Origin: Mobula hypostoma
Taxonomy: Eukaryota
Length of the DNA stretch: 64,000 bases
Direction: 5' to 3'
NCBI RefSeq assembly: GCF_963921235.1
Contig: NC_086097.1
Span: forward strand, 15,686,001-15,750,000
Under the pieces are notes generated by a model. It had not been told where the DNA came from. It made no database searches and saw only the letters and a program-made list of their open reading frames with translations. Within the stretch, counting starts at the first letter, position 1, and each line of letters opens with the position of its first letter. Of this stretch, positions 6,371-61,040 are shown one piece after another. Position numbers and translations under genes: made by a program.

Positions 6371-6737
6371 CTATGTCTTATGGTCTTATAATAGACGGCC
6401 AACATTTCAAGCTGAAGTAATGCATTTGGGCCAAAATGCTGACAATCCATTTTTGCCTCCATTGATGCTGCCTGTTCTGCTGAGTACCTCCAGCATCTTG
6501 TGTGTTGTTCCACAGTGTCTGCAATCTCTTGTGTCTCCGGATGGTTGTAATGGCCAACAGCTTTTCATTGCTCTTTCTTTCCAGTCCAAATGAAGGGCCT
6601 TCATTTCCTTCCATAGATGCTGCATGAACCATTGAGTTCCTTCAGCACTTTGTGAGTTGCTCCAGATTTCCAGCATCTGCAGTCTCTCTGGTGCCTTCAT
6701 TAGTTTTCCAACAGTAAGTGGCCTTTGGAATACCAAA

Positions 6738-6913
6738 CACGAGAAAATCTGCAGATACTGGAAATTCAAGCAACACACATCAACGTTGCTGGTGAACGCA
6801 GCAGCACGAAGCAGAAGTCCTGACGAAGGGTCTCGGCCCGAAACGTCGACTGTACCTCTTCCTAGAGATGCTGCCTGGCCTGCTGCATTCACCAGCAATG
6901 TTGATGTGTGTTT
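6738..6913 (+). mobile_element. Miniature Penelope-derived fold-back element with hammerhead ribozyme
   Basis: Inverted arms aacacacatcaacgttgctggtgaacgcagcag / ctgctgcattcaccagcaatgttgatgtgtgtt. Flanking direct repeat tttgg(a/g)ataccaaa at 6724-6737 and 6914-6927. Confidence 0.8.
6816..6851 (+). ncRNA. Minimal type I hammerhead ribozyme
   Basis: AGUC-CUGACGA-A-GGG(ucucgg)CCC-GAAA-C-GUC|GACU. Conserved core, stem II, stem I AGUC/GACU, predicted GUC cleavage after 6847. Confidence 0.75.
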
Positions 6914-13170: not shown

Positions 13171-14550
13171 TTGTTGATGGGAATTCCTGGAGACACAAGT
13201 GACTGTAGATGCTGGCATCTGGAGCAACAGATCATGCAGGATTTCAGCCCAAAACGTTGACATTTCCTTTTCTGCTGCAGATGCTGCATCACCCACTGAG
13301 TTCATCCAGTGGATCGACCGATTGGGGAGGCGGGGTGGGGCTCCTCGTCCCCATTCCAACATCTTTCTACAGGAGTACCATCGAGACTGTCCTTTGTGGC
13401 TGGGTCGCTGTGTGTTACAGAATCTGCAAGGCTTAGGATCTCAAGACCCAACAGAGGATAGTAAAAAAACACTGAGAAGATCATTGGGGTCTTCCTCCCC
13501 CCGTTTACGAAATTTACCAGGAGCATTGCAGACACCATCCCACCATCCTTACCTCCCATCTCACAATCTCTTTGACCCATTACCATTAGGGAGGAGCTAC
13601 ACATGCATCAGGACTAGGACCGTCAGACTGGGTAACAGCTTCTTCCTTCAGGCTGTGAGACTAATGAATGCCCTGCCATCACTAAGGTCTCATCACTAGA
13701 ACGGTCAGCTGTTTATTGTTTACCTGTGCTGTGCTTTGCTACATGCATTTTGAATTACATTTTATTAACTTATTTATAGTATAATATTTGGTTTTATGTG
13801 CTGTGTGTGATATATGCTGTGTGGGTACACCTTGGTCCGGGGAGACATTGTTTCATTTGGTTGCATGCATGTACAGTCAGATAACAATAAACTTGAACTT
13901 GAACTTGAATTGATAGCCATCCCTCCAGCTCGATAAAGAAGTATTTCTATTTAATTCAAATTCCAAGGAAGCTCCAGTGTGGTCAGTGCCAGAGCTATAG
14001 TCAATTCCTGCCCACTGGATATTTTTGACACACTTCTGCTGGAATTAATCTCTACTTGGCTGAAAAGCCCTGACCGCTGTGGACAACATAAAAGTAGGAG
14101 ACTGAAGCAGCACAGCCTTGAAATTTGACCACAGCACTGTGCTTACCAGTTTCAGTTTTACCCAAAGTGAATTGTTCTGGAGATCATTTCAGGGTTGAAT
14201 CAAGCATTGTCTCTCAGAAAGATCATGGCTGAAATCTTACCTTCATGCCTCTGTCCTGCACTCATCCCAACCATACCAAATTTGTATGTATAAAATTTGT
14301 ATATTTATAATACATAAACTGTTTCAAAGTAAATATATTATCAAATTACGTATCTGTCACCATATACTACCCCCATCAGCCCTCTTCTCACTGCTACCAT
14401 CAAGGAGGAGGTACAGGAGCCTGAAGATACACACTCAATGTTTCAGAGACAATTTCTTCCCCCTCTGCCATTAGATTTCTGAATGGACAATGAACCTATG
14501 AATGTTAACTCAGTGTTTTTTTCCCGTCTTTTTGCACTACATATTTAATT

Positions 14551-15006
<456 letters not shown>

Positions 15007-15292
15007 CACACAGTTCTTATTTTAATTTATAGAACATAGAAAACCTGCAGCATAATACAGGCCTTTTGGCCCACAAAGTTGTGCTGAACATGTCCCTACC
15101 TTAGAAATTACTAAGCTTACCCATAGCCCTCTATTTTTCTAAGCTCCATGTACCTATCCAAAAGTCTCTTAAAAGACCCTATCGTATCCGCCTCCACCAC
15201 CGTTGCCGGCAGCCCATTCCACACACTCACCACTTTCTATGTAAAAATTTACCCCTGACATCTCCTCAATACCTACTCCCCAGCGCCTTAAA

Positions 15293-15367: not shown

Positions 15368-16281
15368 CCAGCACCTTAAACCTGTGTCCTCTTGTGACAA
15401 CCATTGCAGCCCAGGGAAAAAGCCTCTGACTATCCACATGATCAATATAGATTTATTATTATTAATTGCACTGAATTGCTGTCATGAAACAACAATTTCA
15501 TGACAAATGCCAGGGATATTAAACCTGATTCTGATTCTCAGATTCATTTTTTTGTGGACATTTGCAGCAGAGCAAAGAAAGACAATAGAATCAATAAAAA
15601 AAACACAGACAAAGAATGACAAAAAATGTGCAAAAAGGCAAGCTGTGCAAATACAAACAAATAAATAACTAAAACTGAGAACAGGAGTCATAGAGTCATT
15701 CAAAGTGAGTTCATAGGTTGTGGAATCAGTTCATTGTCAGAGTGAGTGAAGTCATCCACCCTGTTTCAGGAGCCTGACAGTTGAAGGGTAACAACTATTC
15801 CTGTAAGTGCTGGTGTGGACATAAGGTTCCTACACCTCCTTCCCAATGGCTGCAGCAAGAAGAGAGTACAGCCTGGATGGTGGGGGTCCTGGGTGATGGA
15901 TGCTTTTTCCTTCTGGCAGCGCTCCTTGTAGCTGTGCTCAGTGTTGGGGATCTCAGTTGGTCAGGCAGCATCTACGGAGGGAAATGGACAGTCAACATCT
16001 CAGGTTGAGACCCTTCATCTGGACTTAAAGAAAGATGGGAGATAGCCAGTATATAAAGTTTTTATGCTTCTCTTTTTATACGGCCTATCTACTTTTTTTT
16101 CTCTTTCAGTCCAGATGAAGGATATGGACCTGAAATGTCAGTTGTCCATTTCCCTCCACAGATGCTGTCTGACCTGCTGATTTCCTCCAGCTCCTTGTGC
16201 AATGCTCCAGCTTCCAGCATCTGCAGCTCCTTGGGTCTTAAGTTTATGTAGAAGCCTTGCAAAGTAGCAAGGAGATACTGT

Positions 16282-16470
16282 GCAACACACACAAAATGCT
16301 GGAGGAACACAGCAGGCCAGGCAGCATCTATGGAAAAAAGTATAGTCAACGTCCTGCCCAAAACGTCCACTGTACGTTTTTCCATAGATGCTGCCTGGCC
16401 TGCTGAGTTCCTCCAGCATTTTGTGTGTGTTGCTCGGATTTCCAGCATCTGCAGATTTTCTCTTGTTTGT
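16282..16470. mobile_element. Penelope-derived palindromic miniature element (hammerhead core deleted)
   Basis: ~65-bp inverted arms gcaacacacacaaaatgctggaggaa...atctatggaaaaa / tttttccatagat...ttcctccagcattttgtgtgtgttgc. Perfect 13-bp TSD aaggagatactgt at 16269-16281 and 16471-16483. Confidence 0.82.
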
Positions 16471-23657: not shown

Positions 23658-23829
23658 AACAAACAACAGGAATTCTGCAGATGCTGGAAATTCAAGCAAC
23701 ACACATCAAAGTTGCTGGTGAACGCAGCAGGCCAGGCAACATCTCTAGGAAGAGGTACGGTCAACGTTTCAGGCCGAGACCCTTCGTCAGGACCCTGACG
23801 AAGGGTCTCGGCCTGAAACGTCGACTGTA
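23658..23829. mobile_element. Penelope-derived miniature with two back-to-back inverted hammerhead cores
   Basis: ...gtcaacgtttcaggccgagacccttcgtcagg-ac-cctgacgaagggtctcggcctgaaacgtcgac..., a ~36-bp-arm hairpin. Confidence 0.8.
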
Positions 23830-46338: not shown

Positions 46339-46535
46339 TATCTTTGACTCTTCGTTATCATCTAAACTTCTGGACAATTTTCTGCAGAGGATAAGGTACA
46401 TTTTATAAATGATGATACAACAGATGACCAAATGAAACTCAGGATCGTGTATAGGGACGTATATGTACTTTGATAATAAATTTACTTTGAACTTTGACAC
46501 TGATGTTCTTTTGATGCCTTGCCATCCTGCTATAG

Positions 46536-46655
46536 ATGTGGATGAGTGCGCTGGAGAAAATCCCTGTGGACAACAATGCATCAACACCTACGGTTCCTTC
46601 CTCTGTCGCTGTGATACTGGATATGAATTAAATTCAGAGGGAATGGGCTGTGATG
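46536..46655 (+). CDS. FBLN5: Fibulin-5 internal exon (cbEGF; equivalent to exon 7)
   Basis: Acceptor ctatag|A, donor G|gtaag, 120 bp, phase 1-1. Encodes [40 protein letters not shown]. Confidence 0.95.
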
Positions 46656-49134
46656 GTAAGCAATGGAATAAGAGGGTTCAATTTTTTATCTTTGAGAGCT
46701 GGCTTTGCCTCCCATTCCTGTCAAGGGTCTCACCTGAACTTAATGTACGAACCACGCTATCATTTTGCTACCACTAATACTTCATGGTTGGTCAGGCGGA
46801 GTTAGGGTTGCCGCTGACAACGATCCCAAGACCATTTCTCATGCATGTCTGTGATGCTCCAGCACTTGGCAACCAAAAACACCCATTTGATTTACAGCCA
46901 GTGAGTTTGCACAATCTTTTATCTGTCGGTCTACTTGCTAAATTGTTTAATTTATTTATTTAAAGATGCAGCACAGTAACAGGCCCTTCCGGCCCAATGA
47001 GCCTGCACTGCCCATTTACACCCTTGTGACCAATTATCCGGGTAACCGTACTAAACCTTTGTAATGTGGGAGGAAACTACAACACCTGGAGGAAACCCGT
47101 ACAATCACAGGAAGAACATACAAGCTCCTTGCTGACAGTGATGGGAACTGAACTCAGGCTGTGGGTACAATAATGTGCAGATTTACTCATGAATTAGGGC
47201 CAGATATCAGAAAGGAAAGATCATTGTATATAATCTTCATTATCTCAGTCTAAGTAGTCTAAAATTTGGAGTGTACCCTGTGAGACAAGGAAAATATCAA
47301 GAAAGACAAAGGAAACACAACCTTGTGATAACGTTCATTATTGTCACTTATTGACTGATTTCTATGAAGTTTGTTTACAACTGTGGAAAATTTTATAAGA
47401 TCTTGGAGTTTGAATCTTGAATCTTGAAACTGTTTAACATGGCTTTGATTCTTTGTCTCATCTTTCTGCTGTTAAAGTATGTTTGATTTTGTAACACAAT
47501 AGCTCTCTCAGCTTTTTGGGTCTTTGCTAACCACACCGAAGCCCGTACATTGGTATATAGGCGCATGAGTTCAGTGAAAGTTTTGACTGTTAACCTTGCC
47601 TTAGCACCTACTCACTTCTTCCCTTAGCTCAATTCACATGCACTGCGCCATGGTAGCGTAGCGATCTGTGCGATGCTATTACAGCTCCGGGTGACACAGT
47701 TGGCAGTTCAATTATGACGCTATCTGTGAGAAGTTTGTACGTTCTCCCTGTGACTGTGTGGGTTTCCTCCGGGTGCTCTGGTTTCCTCCCACAGTCCAAA
47801 GATGTACTGGTTAGTAGGTTAATAAATTGTCTGCTGATTAGTCCAGGATTGAATGTGCTGAGCAGTGTAACTCAGGCCGGGGGGTCTGTTCACGCTGTAT
47901 CGTTAAATAAATAAAAATAAATAAATTGGGGTCAACGAAGCAGGGATTCATTTTCTGCCAGTTGCTTCTGTGGCAATCAAAGGGGATGGAAAAGAAAACT
48001 GTTAAAGTGTTTAATGAATGATGTGCGATTAGTCCAGTTTGTGGATCTACTTAGAGGAGGCTACAAACAGTAGGAGATGTGACATGTTGTGCCAGTTCCC
48101 TTTCACTGTGGTAAAAGTCAGAACCTAGCCCACTTTCTGAGTTCTGAAGTACAGTGAAAGCTTGGGGTACAAGTCCAATTATCCTTGAGTGTGGTAGTGC
48201 CAGTTAATAACATAGGTACAAAGGTGATGGGATACCGATTGTCATTAGTCAGGACATTGAAAAGAAGAGGAGGGAGGGATGTTGAATGAGATGGAGCAGC
48301 TCAGTTATGAAAAGAGACCAGAGGGACGAGGTCTGTTCTCCCTAGAAATCAGGAGAATTAAGAGGAGATGTGACTGGGGCGGCTCAGTAGCACAGCCGTC
48401 AGCACAACCACTTTACAGTGCATGTGATCACCGATCGGGGGTTCGATTCCCACTGCTGTGTGTAAGGAGTTTGTACATTCTCCAAGTGACCACGTGGGTT
48501 TCCTCCCGGTGCTCCAGTTTCCTCCTACATTCCAAAGATGCACGGTGAGAATTAGTGAGCTGTGGGCGTGCAATGTTCGTGCCTGAAGCACAGCACAGCA
48601 CAGCACAATCCTCACTGATCTGAGGAATTTCACTGAGTGTTTCAATGTTTTGATGTACAGGCGATAACTCAAGCTAAATCTAATCTCCTATCATATATAA
48701 ATTTATGAGGTGTAAAGATAATGCATAGGTGGCACTAGCAATGACATTACTGAACAAAACAGTCCATAAACAAATAGCTTAAATAGAATAGATAGGAAAG
48801 GCCGTTCTGGCCCAATGAGTTGTTCTGTTCGGCAACCCACTGATTTAACACTAGCCAGGACATTTTACATTGGCCAATTAACCTACTAACCGGTACATCT
48901 TTGGACTGTGGGAGGAAACCAGAGTGCTCGAAGCAAAGACCCACGCAGTCACGGGGAGAACGTACGAGCTCCTTACTGACGGTGCCGGATTGAGCTCCGA
49001 ATTCTGGAGCGCCACGAGCCACAATAGCAGCGTGCTAATTGCTACGTTACCTTGGAGCCCCGTGTAGTTCAGTCGGCTGCAATGACTTCACTGGGGAAAA
49101 AATCAGCCCATCAAAAATAAAACATATTTTTATT

Positions 49135-52100
49135 CATCAATCATGGGATTGAATTTAGGAGCCGAGAGGTAATGTTGCAGCTATATAGGACCCTGGTCAG
49201 ACCCCACTTGGAGTACTGTGCTCAGTTCTGGTCGCCTCACTACAGGAAGGACATGGAAATCATAGAAAGGGTGCAGAGGAGATTTACAAGGATGTTGCCT
49301 GCATTGGGCAGCATGCCTTATGAGAATAGGTTGAGTGAACTCGGCCTTTTCTCCTTGGAGAGACAAAGGATGAGAGGTGACCGGATAGAGGTGTACAAGA
49401 TAATAAGAGGCATTGATCGTGTGGTGGACTTGACCAGGGGGTGGGCCTTGTCTGCGTAGTTAGAGACCCATTGGGCGTAATATGAAAAGAAGCCCAGGCA
49501 CCTTTTGAGGGCTCTGAGGGTGTTGGGAAGAGGGAGTTCCAACAGGGGGCACATACGGTCAGGGTCAGGGCTAATGACTCCATTCTCCACGACACACCCA
49601 AGGATAGCAAGTCGGGTGGTCCCAAATACACGCTTGTCCTTGTTATAGGTGAGATTGAAAGCTTTTGGAGGTTGTTGTCGTGATCCTGCCGGTCGTGACC
49701 ACTGATGGTGATGTTATTCAGATATGGGAACTTGGCCTTCAGTTGGTACTGGTCCATTATCCGGTCCATTGCCCTCTGGAAGACAGATACACCATTCGTG
49801 TCACCGAAGGGGACGCGCAGGAAGTGATAAAGCCTGCCGTCTGCCTCAAAGGTGGTGTAAGGGCGGTCCTCCAAGCGGATGGGGAGCTGATGGTAAGTGG
49901 ATTTTAGGTCTATGGTCAAGTACACCTTGTACTGTGCTATCTGATTGACCATATCCGCGATGCGGGGTAGAGGGTATGTGTCGAGCTGCGTGAACCTATT
50001 GATGGTCTGGCTATAGTTCATGACCATCCTATTTTTCTCCCCGGTCCGAACAATGACCACCTGTGCCCTCCAAGGACTTGTGCTTGCCTCAATGACCCCC
50101 TCCCTGAGCAGCCGCTGCACCTCCGACTTAATGAAGGCTCTGTCCCCAGCGCTGTACCTCCTGCTTTTAGTTGCCACAGGTTTACAGTCAGGGGTCAGGT
50201 TGGTGAACAGTGTTGGGGGAGGGATCCTGAGGGTGGAGAGGTCACAAGTGGCGTCGGTAGTGCAGCAGTTGACATGGTGTTGGGTGAGATGTGCGGGTCG
50301 GTGTGTGTGTGTGGTCAGTAGCGAGGTATGTGACGTATCCCTACAAAACTGGGGATTTACGACAGTAATTGGTGGGAGGAGCGCATCATACTTCATTGTC
50401 ACGCTTTTCAGGTGGCTCTGAAAGTTGAGCCCCAATAGCACGGGGGCACACAGTTGAGGCATGACCAGTAATGTAAAGTCATGATATTCTGTGCCCTGCA
50501 CCACTAGCATCGCTACACAACCCCCCCCCCCCCGGATGTCAGTTGTATGCGACCCAGAAGTTATGGTGACCCTTTGACTTACCGGCCATATCACGAGTCT
50601 GCAATGCTGCACCGTGTCCGGGTGGATAAAACTCTCTGTGCTGCCTGTGTCAAACGAGGCAGCTCGTCCTGCACCCCTCCACCAGGATGTCCATCATGAC
50701 CTTGCGAGCTGGTGGGGAGCGCTTTGGTCGAGGGTCACGGAGGCCAGGGTTGAGTCGCTGTCGTGGTCTGGCACGGTGGGGTGCCCCATGAGCACCCGTT
50801 GGTGGGAGGGGGTGCCGACCAAGATGGCCGTCCCCATGTCTCGCACGTGGTGGCGGCGTGCAGGGAAAATGGTGGCAGGCAAGATGTCGACCCCCATGTC
50901 TCGCACGTGGTGCTGCTCGATCCCGCTCGCAATTTGGACTTACAGGCCTTGGCGAAATGGCCCTTCTTTCCGCAGCTGGAGCAGGTAGCTTGTCGAGCCA
51001 GGCAGCGTTTCCGGGGGTGCTTCTTGAGTCTGCAGAAGTAGCACTTCGTGGACTCGTGACTGGCGGCAGCTGAGGCTGATTCGCCGGCAGGTTGCGGGGT
51101 CTGCGGCACCCATGAGGCCGTGGGGGGATCACATGCCTGGAGAGCCTCGGAGTTATACAGAGTGGCCTCCAGCGTGTCGGCCAGCTCGATTGCCGAACTT
51201 AAGGTAAAATCGGCTTTTTCCAACAGCTGCTGGTGCACATACACTGACCTGGTCCCCGTGATGAAGGCATCTCTCACTAGGAGCTCTGCATGCTGCGCCG
51301 CCATCAGCTCCTGGCAGTTGCAGGCTCGCACGAGTGTCCGTAGGGCCTGGACGAACTCAGCACTTGATTCCCCGGACCGTTGTTGCCGTGTCGCTAAGCA
51401 ATGCCGAGCATAGACGCTGTTTATCTGCCGCAGGTATTGTCCCTTGAGTGCGCTCACCGCACCGTCGTAGGTCTGCTGGTCTCTGATCATCGAGTAGACC
51501 CGTGGACTGACCCTGGAGAGTAGAACTCTGTGCTTCGCTACAGGGTGGGTTGCTTTAATCTCCTCTAGGTACGCTTCGAAGCAGGCCAGCCAGAGTTTGA
51601 AAGCATTTCCAGCTTCAGGTATTTGCAGATCGGGTCTAACTTGTCGGGTCTCAAAGCATGTTCCATACTTTAAAATGTACAGCGAATAAAATTGAAGTAC
51701 CTTCAATAACTCCAAAAGACTGAGGTTGGGTAAAATACTGAAAGGCTCTTATTCACTGTACAATACGACCTCCACTGTGAGTGTCTGTCCCCGGACTGAG
51801 GGGGAAGGGCAAGGCGAAACAACTTTATTCAGGAACCTGTGGGAGGAGCCACGGGGCAATCAGCAGAGGGGCGTGTCCAGACAGTTAACCCAGTTACAAC
51901 ATATATATGGTTTACCACAGATCGTGTGGATAGTCAGAGGCTTTTTCCCCGGGGCTGAAATGCCTAGCACAAGAGGGCACAGTTTTAAGGTGCTTGGAAG
52001 TAGGTACAGAGGAGATATCAGGGGTAAGTTTTTTACGCTGAGAGTGGTAGTTGCGTGGAATGGGCTGCCGGTGGCAGTAGTGGAGGTGGAATCGATAAGG

Positions 52101-52255
52101 TCTTTTAAGAGACTCCTGGATAGGTACATGGCGCTTAGAAAAATAGAGGGCTATGGGTAACCCTAAGTAATTTCTAAGGTAAGGACATGTTCGGCACAGC
52201 TTTGTGGGCCGAAGGGCCTGTATTGTGCTGTAGGTTTTCTATGTTTCTATGTAAC
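49135..52255 (+). mobile_element. CR1 LINE 3' portion (49135-49424 and 51920-52255), split by a Gypsy insertion
   Basis: LYRTLVRPHLEYC...IIRGIDRV continues as DSQRLF...RGHSFKV after 51920. Tail tttctatgtttctatg. Confidence 0.88.
49425..51919 (-). mobile_element. Gypsy/Ty3 LTR retrotransposon, 3'-truncated (5' LTR, gag, protease, RT; no RNase H, integrase or 3' LTR)
   Basis: LTR begins TGTGGTAAACC at 51919 and ends ...GGTACTTCA at ~51693 (inferred). Gag ATG at ~51666 with two CCHC knuckles (CYFCRLKKHPRKRC, CSSCGKKGHFAKAC). Protease DTGST at ~50635-50650. RT SPWRAQVVIV, IDLKSTYHQ, RVPFG, YLNN. Several frameshifts. Confidence 0.92.
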
Positions 52256-53629
52256 TATATAATTTAAAAAAGATAGATAGGAAAGGGTATTAAAAGGATT
52301 TACTTGCCAACTGAGGATGAATCATTTATTTACAATTAATTTGGGAAAATATCCATCTAGTTCTAGTTAAATCTGGTGAAGTAAATAAATCCTGTAGAGA
52401 AGAGAATTAGCACACCGATAAACGTATATGTTAGAAACTGAATTTTATACCGGCATACTTTATGTGGATATAAAATAAATTTTATTTAATTAAAAAATGT
52501 GGTAAGTGAATAAAATTAAGGTTAAGTATTTTGTTCGTTATGCTCACTGTGATTACTACTAAAGAAGGTCTCTTTTAAAAGCAAACTCTTATTCACTAAT
52601 ATTTTTTAACCAACACCTTGTTGTCTTTAGCAACAAGTGTTGCCATGTTGCTTCAGGCAAGCCACAGCTGTGCGATATAGTTCAGAAATTCTTTCATTGG
52701 GAAAATAAATCCTGCAGGAAATTATGTAATTCAAACTAATATTTTACTTGGGAATTGAGGTGATTAATTTGTACAAAAATGTTTATTAATGATAACATCT
52801 ATTTTTCTCTGGGGATTGACTAATTTATCATTGGGTTTATATTAACCACAGTTAGCTTTGAAACTCTTCTACACAATGCTACTGTTTAGTTTTATTGATA
52901 AAGGCTCAACTTTCTGAGGGCTGCAGGTTATTTTAGTCTTGCGTAAAGTTCACACTATTTCATCATTTTGGTGATTGGAAGCTTTATTGTGGAAACAATG
53001 CCCTCCTCCATTCCTGCTCTTCCCAACCAGACCCTGTTGGCCGAACAAAAAATGCTTTGTTTATCTAATATTTCCTATTGAAGAGAAGAGTAATTACAGA
53101 GAGTTTGAAGGAAACCCATGTGGTCATAGCAAAAAGGTGCACTAACCACTACACTACTGTGACACCCTGGGTTGAATGCACATAGGTTTCCTTCCCAGGG
53201 TTGAGGAACGAAGAACTAGAGGATATGGATTTAGGGAACAGGTTTAATAGGAACTTGAAGGGCAACTTTTTTCACCCAGAAGTTGGTCAACGTAGGGTAC
53301 AAGCTGACAGAGACATGTACATTAATGACATTTATAAGGCACTCGAAAAGGTGCGTGGGTGGGAAAGGTTTAGAGGGGTATGGGCCAAGTATGGACAAAT
53401 GGAATCTTGGACCAGTTGGATTCAAGGATCTGATCCCATGTTGCATGATTCTGTTATAGTCTCTAACATGACAAGCCTGAGTGCTTTCATCCCAAACTTG
53501 AAGGAACACATCCCCTCCCACCCACCCACCCACACACCCACATTTGCAGCAACAGGAAACTCCTACACCTCTTTAATCCTTTATGTATTCAGTGGATATT
53601 TATCTCCTCCTTTCGGGTTGAATTTGAAC

Positions 53630-60146: not shown

Positions 60147-60692
60147 CAGACATCAGTTCTGGGTGCAGATCTGGTCGCCACACTATAGGAAGGATGCAAT
60201 TGTGCTGGAAAAAGTGCAGAAGCTATTCACCAGGCTATTTACTGGATTGGAACACTTCAAGTATGGGAAGAGATCACTTAGGCTGGGCTTGTCTTCCCTG
60301 GAATTACAGAGGTGGAGATAGATGAAATTACAAGAGGCATAGATAGGATATGACTATAAATGTCAGAGCAAGCATGGACTTCGAGACTTTCCTACCATTC
60401 AACAAATTATAACTTCCTCACCATTTCAGAGTAAGAATCCGGTTTATTATCACTAACATATGCTGTGAAATCTGTTGTACTGTGGCAGCTGTACTGTGCA
60501 AAGCACTGAATATACTACGAGCTACAATGAATAAATGGTGCAAAAGAGGAAAAGTGAGGCAGTGTTCATTGCCCATTCAGAAATCTGATGGTCGAGGGGA
60601 AGAAGCTGTTCCTAAAATACTGAACGTAGACCTTCAGGCTTTTGTATCTCCTCTAAGATGCTAGTAATGAGAAGATTTCTCTGATATCGGAC

Positions 60693-61040
60693 ACCCCTTA
60701 TTCTTAAACTGTGGCCTCTGGGTGAGTCCAGAACCAGAGGCCACAGTTTAAGAATAAGGGGTAGGCCATTTAGAATGGAGTTGTGGAAAAACGTTTTCAC
60801 CCAGAGAGTGGTGGATATATGGAATGCTGTGCCCCAGAAGGCTGTGGAGGCCAAGTCTCTGGATGCTTTCAAGAAAGAGATGGATGGAGCTCTTAAAGAT
60901 AGTGGAATCAAAGGTTATGGAGATAAGGCAGGAACTGGATACTGATTGTGGATGATCAGCCATGATCACAGTGAATGGCGGTGCTGGCTCAAAGGGCTGA
61001 ATGGCCTACTCCTGCACCTTTTGTCTATTGTCTATTGAAT
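60693..61040 (+). mobile_element. CR1 3' end with a fold-back at its 5' junction
   Basis: RGHSLRIRGRPFR...FFTQRVV, tail (TCTATTG)n. 29-bp perfect inverted repeat at 60693-60721 / 60734-60762. Confidence 0.8.

Follow-up and report, generated by a model that had tools for sequence, protein, structure and literature searches.

Probable self-priming in a clade of animal Ty3/Gypsy retrotransposons that lack a chromodomain

We propose that a clade of animal Ty3/Gypsy retrotransposons starts reverse transcription as Tf1 does, the site right after its 5′ long terminal repeat (LTR) serving as the binding site for a primer taken from its own transcript. From sequence comparison, we put the probability of this reading at about 80%. 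The pointer to the clade is a Ty3/Gypsy copy on the minus strand of a 64,000-nucleotide stretch of repeat-rich animal DNA from Mobula hypostoma (RefSeq assembly GCF_963921235.1, contig NC_086097.1, positions 15,686,001 to 15,750,000; hereafter the window, with coordinates counted from its first letter). This copy is a dead fragment and matters only as that pointer. Since the start of minus-strand DNA defines the end of U5, an LTR element has to begin this strand immediately beyond its 5′ LTR. In these elements the sequence at this spot finds its complement in the element's own LTR alone and changes together with that LTR, for which a Tf1-like mechanism appears to be the simplest reading.

The Ty3/Gypsy features that remain in the window are gag, protease, reverse transcriptase (RT) and one LTR (Table 1). 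The best Protein Data Bank match is Ty3 Gag-Pol, and the nearest gag relatives come from Mobula (83%), Hemitrygon, Hypanus and Mustelus. Nothing remains of integrase or the 3′ LTR, and a host repeat begins at about 49424. Because only one LTR is left and the element is cut at that point, the position of the LTR end in the window rests on a step in contig depth and on relatives that retain both LTRs. In sequencing run X1, depth rises from 28,076 through 134,381 to 317,642 across bins spanning 51670–51726 (contig depth, and a hint only). We rejected an LTR end at the CA at 51676: depth rises only above about 51690, and the LTRs of the two-LTR relatives end before the arm described below.

The LTR terminus, CTTCA at 51693, is followed by a single A and then by an arm that pairs with the LTR. 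A preliminary description of this DNA had reported a pairing over 16 positions, and this proved to be real: 51762–51747 pairs with 51676–51691 on the minus strand in 16 contiguous base pairs, 14 of them Watson–Crick and two G–U (51755:51683 and 51748:51690), and the pairing extends on neither side. It had also noted that no TGG follows the inferred LTR end and that the gag ATG lies about 10 nucleotides past the arm; both points were borne out, the second by an ATG at 51666, the 10th base past the primer-binding-site arm. The 101-nucleotide stem region has a predicted folding energy of −29 kcal/mol (z = −5.19), a value that none of 200 shuffles equalled. In 3,000 shuffles of the LTR, the best stem starting 0–3 bases past the LTR end reached at most 12 pairs, against the 16 observed. 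Stems passing the same filter occur at nine places on the minus strand, outside the microsatellite at 14.5–15 kb, so the window stem is not unique as a stem; what sets it apart is its position relative to the LTR end. Rfam gave no match over 51500–52300 at E values up to 5, and ARAGORN found no tRNA in the window.

The depth of contigs from four runs (X1, X5, X13 and X9) bears on the letters of the stem; X13 is a presumed RNA run, although contig depth says nothing about transcript ends. At 51748:51690, an A–U pair accounts for 99.9% of depth in X1 and X5 and 100% in X13; at 51755:51683, a C–G pair accounts for 95%, 89% and 96% in X1, X5 and X13, respectively. The window letter is the minority at both places. 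The preliminary description had taken the two G–U wobbles as a sign of RNA-level structure. This idea failed: because 89–100% of depth in three runs gives Watson–Crick pairs there, the wobbles look like private decay of the dead copy. Selection on RNA was also rejected as an explanation of G–U pairs within the families of relatives described below, in which the single-sided departures comprise 11 G–U pairs and 21 mismatches (37 gap cells set aside), about as expected from neutral decay by our own estimate. In the more distant run X9, both partners differ from the window at 51759 (26 of 32 depth) and 51679 (223 of 228), whereas at the second pair 51683 differs (200 of 228) while 51755 mostly retains the window letter. 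Relative to X1 and X5 these amount to two double changes, unphased and at low depth on the LTR side.

A metagenome search by alignment gave no stretch conserved enough to use; a motif pattern gave 120 of an estimated 370 or so metagenome stretches, and 8 further loci came from bins of the Genome Taxonomy Database (GTDB). Of 131 sequences, 124 matched gag; the 64 of these with 170 or more bases of upstream DNA were used, and the remaining 60 were set aside ahead of the counts. These 64 usable loci fall into 26 families at an identity of 80%. No family member turned up in four protein-based scans of viral contigs, in which two loci matched a zinc knuckle only. The GTDB loci (L003–L010) are animal clade members inside bacterial bins, most likely as host contamination; two of them, L003 and L004, are circularly permuted single-LTR contigs.

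Across these families the pairing keeps its place while its letters change. In 35 of the 64 copies, representing 18 of the 26 families, an unconstrained stem search lands in the same register, CA plus one base and then TT, with at least 11 Watson–Crick pairs, and in these 18 families that register pairs 12–18 bases with the family's own LTR in differing letters. Stem score was the basis for choosing the 18 family representatives, so their first 11 pairs are built into the choice; the unbiased tests are a shuffle test on all 64 loci and the loci with two LTRs. In the first, which tolerates mismatches, 12 or 13 of 13 pairs form in the CA + 1 register in 43 of 64 loci, against none of 640 shuffles. 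The second uses seven loci (six insertions, three families) with perfect 5-bp target duplications, which fix the LTR end independently of the stem and, as the preliminary description had suggested two-LTR relatives might, place it before the arm. Five of the seven carry an exact complement of 13–14 bases from the first base after the LTR end; in the other two the complement is interrupted early and extends for 11 and 17 bases from the third. The host flank behind the 3′ LTR of the same loci gives just 2–5 bases of complement.

Arms pair at 12.7 of 13 positions with their own family and at 8.2 of 13 across families, with 7 of 306 cross pairs reaching 12. Stem positions 5–10 and 12 each show three or four Watson–Crick pair types among families. 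On covariation, another check that the preliminary description had named, letters change between families and pairing with the own LTR is kept. Within one family, a phased double change from C–G to T–A at stem position 14 is carried by single copies (L049 and L090). At this position the family's four copies (L021, L049, L057 and L090) include two with a new LTR letter and an old site letter, two with both new, and none with an old LTR letter and a new site letter. This pattern fits copying of the primer back into the site, and it also fits selection through a G–U intermediate; the numbers are small.

No TGG follows the LTR end in any of the 18 representatives; among all 64 loci TGG occurs in eight, seven of which are ATG-G starts. 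The site might nevertheless bind a host RNA in trans, such as a tRNA half, an internal tRNA fragment or a small RNA, with the LTR complement as an add-on like the U5-leader stem of retroviruses. Half-tRNA primers are described in Copia lineages and in fungal Helenus (PMC6317226 and PMC10886601), and the core of the site is similar between families. Against this, the letters of the site follow those of each family's own LTR, so that every family would need a different host RNA, the LTR arm would compete for the whole of the site, and there is no TGG for a tRNA 3′ end. We consider a host primer very unlikely. The suggestion of tRNA-independent self-priming in the preliminary description is well supported by the comparison, with a register fixed in 18 of 26 families under changed letters and TGG in no representative.

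The anatomy around the arm is also conserved. Aligned on the inner end of the stem, the LTR arms have A or T at −11 (14 and 4 of 18 representatives), have G at −10 (16 of 18) and end in AAA; we take the −11 motif to resemble an initiator. R-C-C-T follows directly after the arm (17, 16, 15 and 16 of 18). Beyond the 11 pairs used for selection, pairing continues at stem positions 12–16 in 17, 16, 11, 12 and 9 of 18 representatives, above background to about position 16. A second helix tends to start at the first base after the predicted cut (see below), with a length of 71 when summed over the 18 families, compared with a shuffled mean of 53.9; none of 500 shuffles reaches 71, but only 4 of the 18 families have p < 0.05 individually. 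A U5-IR-like helix reportedly lies beside the primer duplex in Tf1-type elements.

Many LTR arms also contain a polyadenylation signal, which raises the possibility that the stem serves mainly to mask this signal in the 5′ LTR, with the partner arm found only behind the 5′ LTR and priming left to another primer. The preliminary description had noted an AAUAAA-like signal in the arm and had offered masking as an alternative or additional role. The signal stands for the window family, in which the copy reads AATAAG (51753–51748) and contig depth in X1, X5 and X13 gives the canonical AATAAA, but not for the clade as a whole: 11 of 18 representatives carry AATAAA or ATTAAA at the arm's inner end, whereas six others have neither in the arm, and of these six L033 and L070 carry the hexamer 6 and 5 bases inside the loop. 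Retroviruses whose signal lies in R have to silence it in the 5′ copy, for which HIV-1 uses a stem-loop (PMC12789967). However, with six arms lacking the hexamer and two of these having it outside the stem, masking cannot be the common function; it has no need of the invariant CA + 1 register, and it leaves the element without a primer site. As the main function masking is therefore improbable, whereas as a second job in the other families it is plausible.

In the representatives, no more than about 36 bases separate the end of the arm from the gag start, and in some the two touch, as might be expected if the stem were a leader switch for gag translation, dimerization or packaging. Yet the distance from the LTR end to the ATG varies between 16 and 52 bases, while that from the LTR end to the arm is invariant, and priming would go unexplained. 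We give this explanation hardly any weight.

If the elements do prime themselves as Tf1 does, the following steps can be predicted by analogy. The element RNA would fold back, the primer-binding-site arm pairing with the LTR arm, and cleavage by the element's RNase H would fall immediately 3′ of the LTR arm, between AAA and RCCT. From the 3′ end so freed, minus-strand DNA would begin one or two bases beyond the LTR. Transcription could begin at the 5′ end of the arm, giving a primer of about 11–18 bases as in Tf1, or further upstream; in the window family an upstream start might lie at 51797, for a primer of about 50 bases. The transcript from the 3′ LTR would have to end a little downstream of the cut, which would account for a hexamer at or just behind it and would leave a short R for the first strand transfer. 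Hiding of the 5′ LTR hexamer would be a by-product, or a second job, in most families. A primer that stayed on the cDNA would be copied into the site in every cycle, and such copy-back would explain the clean, sharply bounded stems. The Tf1 primer is said to stay on the cDNA, to go by the title of a 2006 paper by Atwood-Moore.

Several observations weigh against this reading. The support consists of sequence comparison. Eight of the 26 families do not pass the strict stem test: three, at 10–11 of 13 in register, look decayed, but five score 7–9, the level of shuffles. Many loci come from few samples, and all families are kin. Because pairing continues to position 16, a start exactly 11 bases before the cut would leave part of the stem unexplained. 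The window family has a TATA-like site 67 bases and an initiator-like motif 35 bases upstream of the arm, an arrangement that would place the arm in the interior of the transcript and so differ from Tf1. The 17 other representatives showed no TATAAA or TATATA upstream of the arm.

The domain order of the relatives is that of Gypsy and not of Copia: one 1,234-residue frame carries protease, RT, RNase H and integrase in this order, and two LTRs, a purine tract and a 5-bp duplication are present among them. The clade combines a two-knuckle Gag, short LTRs (about 120–230 bp) and an RT motif that is mostly YLDN. RT relatives at 56–88% identity occur in rays, sharks, corals, a snail, insects, a spider, a tunicate and flukes (among the 120 of 535 matches listed). 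No chromodomain was found among these 120 or in L060; nor did any of 34 polyproteins match a Chromo or Tf2-type SH3 domain, whereas two chromovirus elements used as controls matched both. One chromodomain element (L177, 961–1175) has a site after its LTR that by eye matches about 9 bases of its own LTR, about 35 bases after a TATA box, and is likely to be a classical self-priming example.

In an RT tree, the window and 29 relatives form one branch (support 100/100), apart from two chromodomain elements, four other Gypsy-like RTs and six caulimovirus-like RTs; the tree includes neither Tf1 nor sushi. A tree holding the clade and the two chromodomain elements together is, however, not rejected by the approximately unbiased (AU) test (p = 0.154; four long-branch rows, L053, L062, L161 and L005, left out), so that an independent origin of self-priming is not shown.

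The clade's two-knuckle Gag suggests the Mag lineage, as we take two tandem Gag zinc knuckles, the lack of a chromodomain and a wide spread among animals to be Mag features. On the side of difference, Mag-type elements are reportedly tRNA-primed, and the RT motif of our clade is mostly YLDN. The Mag lineage is divided into A, B and C clades, with members such as Mag, SURL and Gulliver (PMC6238403). Naming the clade by motif searches in papers and supplements gave no match, and it may already carry a name in the literature, for example among the MolGy clades. The flatworm Saci-2/lennie elements are likewise non-chromovirus animal Gypsy elements with a single gag-pol frame (PMC12471100), but we rejected them as the clade: they have 4-bp duplications and tRNA sites, whereas all seven two-LTR loci here have 5-bp duplications and there is no TGG. 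Skipper of Dictyostelium is similar in that its TGG site is replaced, in its case by a pyrimidine-rich stretch (PMC5006619), but it has a chromodomain and no LTR complement.

Established self-primed Ty3/Gypsy elements are Tf1 and Tf2 of Schizosaccharomyces pombe and Tj1 of S. japonicus (PMC4600332, PMC5341516). In Tf1, the site is bound by the first 11 transcript bases, and RNase H cleaves the RNA after base 11 (PMC7175516). Like these elements, the clade has a site behind the 5′ LTR that is complementary to its own LTR and not to a tRNA; its 11-base conserved core equals the Tf1 primer in length (PMC7175516), and a helix may adjoin it. Unlike them, it has stems of 12–18 bases, most of which terminate in a poly(A)-type hexamer and which may start away from the cap; it lacks a chromodomain, has a two-knuckle Gag and LTRs of about 120–230 bp, lives in animals and is known here from sequence only. 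A published criterion for self-priming asks for at least 10 bases complementary to the LTR, located 0–5 bases after it (PMC6317226), and describes both the window element and most of the related families. The same kind of LTR complement led to predictions of self-priming in the Tf1/sushi group and the Tcn1 clade (chromoviruses of fungi, vertebrates and mosses) and in the plant Copia elements TAR, Houba and Osr-1 (PMC6317226), from which our clade differs in lacking Chromo and SH3 domains, in having an RT branch of its own (100/100) and in its Gypsy domain order. It thus appears to work like Tf1, Tf2 and Tj1 without being filed as a Tf1/sushi chromovirus.

Other features of the window are side observations. 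About 40 low-complexity, CA-rich codons lie between protease and RT (about 50250–50330, minus strand) and are apparently missing in invertebrate relatives. Both flanks of the element (51920–52260 and 49120–49424) are pieces of a common host repeat that gave no match in a Pfam search; by a motif, these pieces look like the ends of CR1-type long interspersed nuclear elements. On the plus strand, 46436–46774 is a host exon encoding a calcium-binding EGF domain (E = 1.6e-9), and the Gypsy fragment probably lies antisense within an intron of this gene. Head-to-head pieces of host repeats form near-perfect long hairpins at 23760–23825, 60692–60763, 16282–16433, 6786–6898, 6666–6765 and 16010–16123, two of them nearly loopless, and a long tandem array of AT-rich units of about 8 bases occupies 14487–15040.

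Table 1. Features of the Ty3/Gypsy copy in the window
Feature	Coordinates	Strand	Remarks
5′ LTR	51693..51919	−	227 bp, from TG at 51919 to CA at 51693; sole LTR left; ends from depth step and loose ends, junction as in two-LTR relatives
TATA-like position, candidate upstream promoter of the window family	51824..51829	−	AATAAA in window copy; TATA box in about 59–100% of contig depth per run
Initiator-like TCAGT, candidate upstream transcription start	51795..51799	−	32 bases after TATA-like site; presumed likeness to an initiator
LTR arm of stem, predicted self-primer	51747..51762	−	conserved AG at 51757–51756, 11 bases before predicted cut; poly(A)-type hexamer at 51753–51748
GCCT adjoining 3′ side of LTR arm	51743..51746	−	RNase H predicted to cut between 51747 and 51746, or one base further inside
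Inner hairpin in R-U5, stacked on stem	51699..51746	−	predicted fold
Primer-binding-site arm	51676..51691	−	starts one base (51692) beyond LTR CA; no TGG
gag, two zinc knuckles	50738..51666	−	frameshift near 51632 breaks frame
Protease, RT, start of connection/RNase H region	49424..50690	−	frame broken after RT core; catalytic motif altered

In the papers drawn on here, self-priming among Gypsy elements is tied to the Tf1/sushi and Tcn1 chromoviruses. A full-text literature search, thin on subscription papers and Repbase Reports, found no published report of it in this clade. What is new is the likely self-priming of a non-chromodomain clade of animal Gypsy elements, with a primer that overlaps the polyadenylation signal. 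A bolder version, which we hold tentatively and at somewhat less than even odds, is that this animal-wide, non-chromovirus clade invented self-priming independently, drawing its primer from the poly(A)-signal segment. One helix would hide the signal, and the cut between AAA and RCCT would yield the primer and a very short R. The uncut primer, copied back in every cycle, would keep the arms matched, and the transcript start would set the length of the stem.

If self-priming is confirmed, the mechanism would cover a lineage with RT relatives from rays and sharks to corals, molluscs, insects, spiders, tunicates and flukes (among the matches listed), and it would either have arisen again or be far older than assumed. 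This would bear on the proposal that hairpin priming preceded tRNA priming (PMC3601003). It would also explain why annotation based on tRNAs gives such elements no primer site, and the elements may escape host 3′ tRNA fragments. From the conserved register and the cut motif, the ends of transcripts and cDNA can be predicted exactly.
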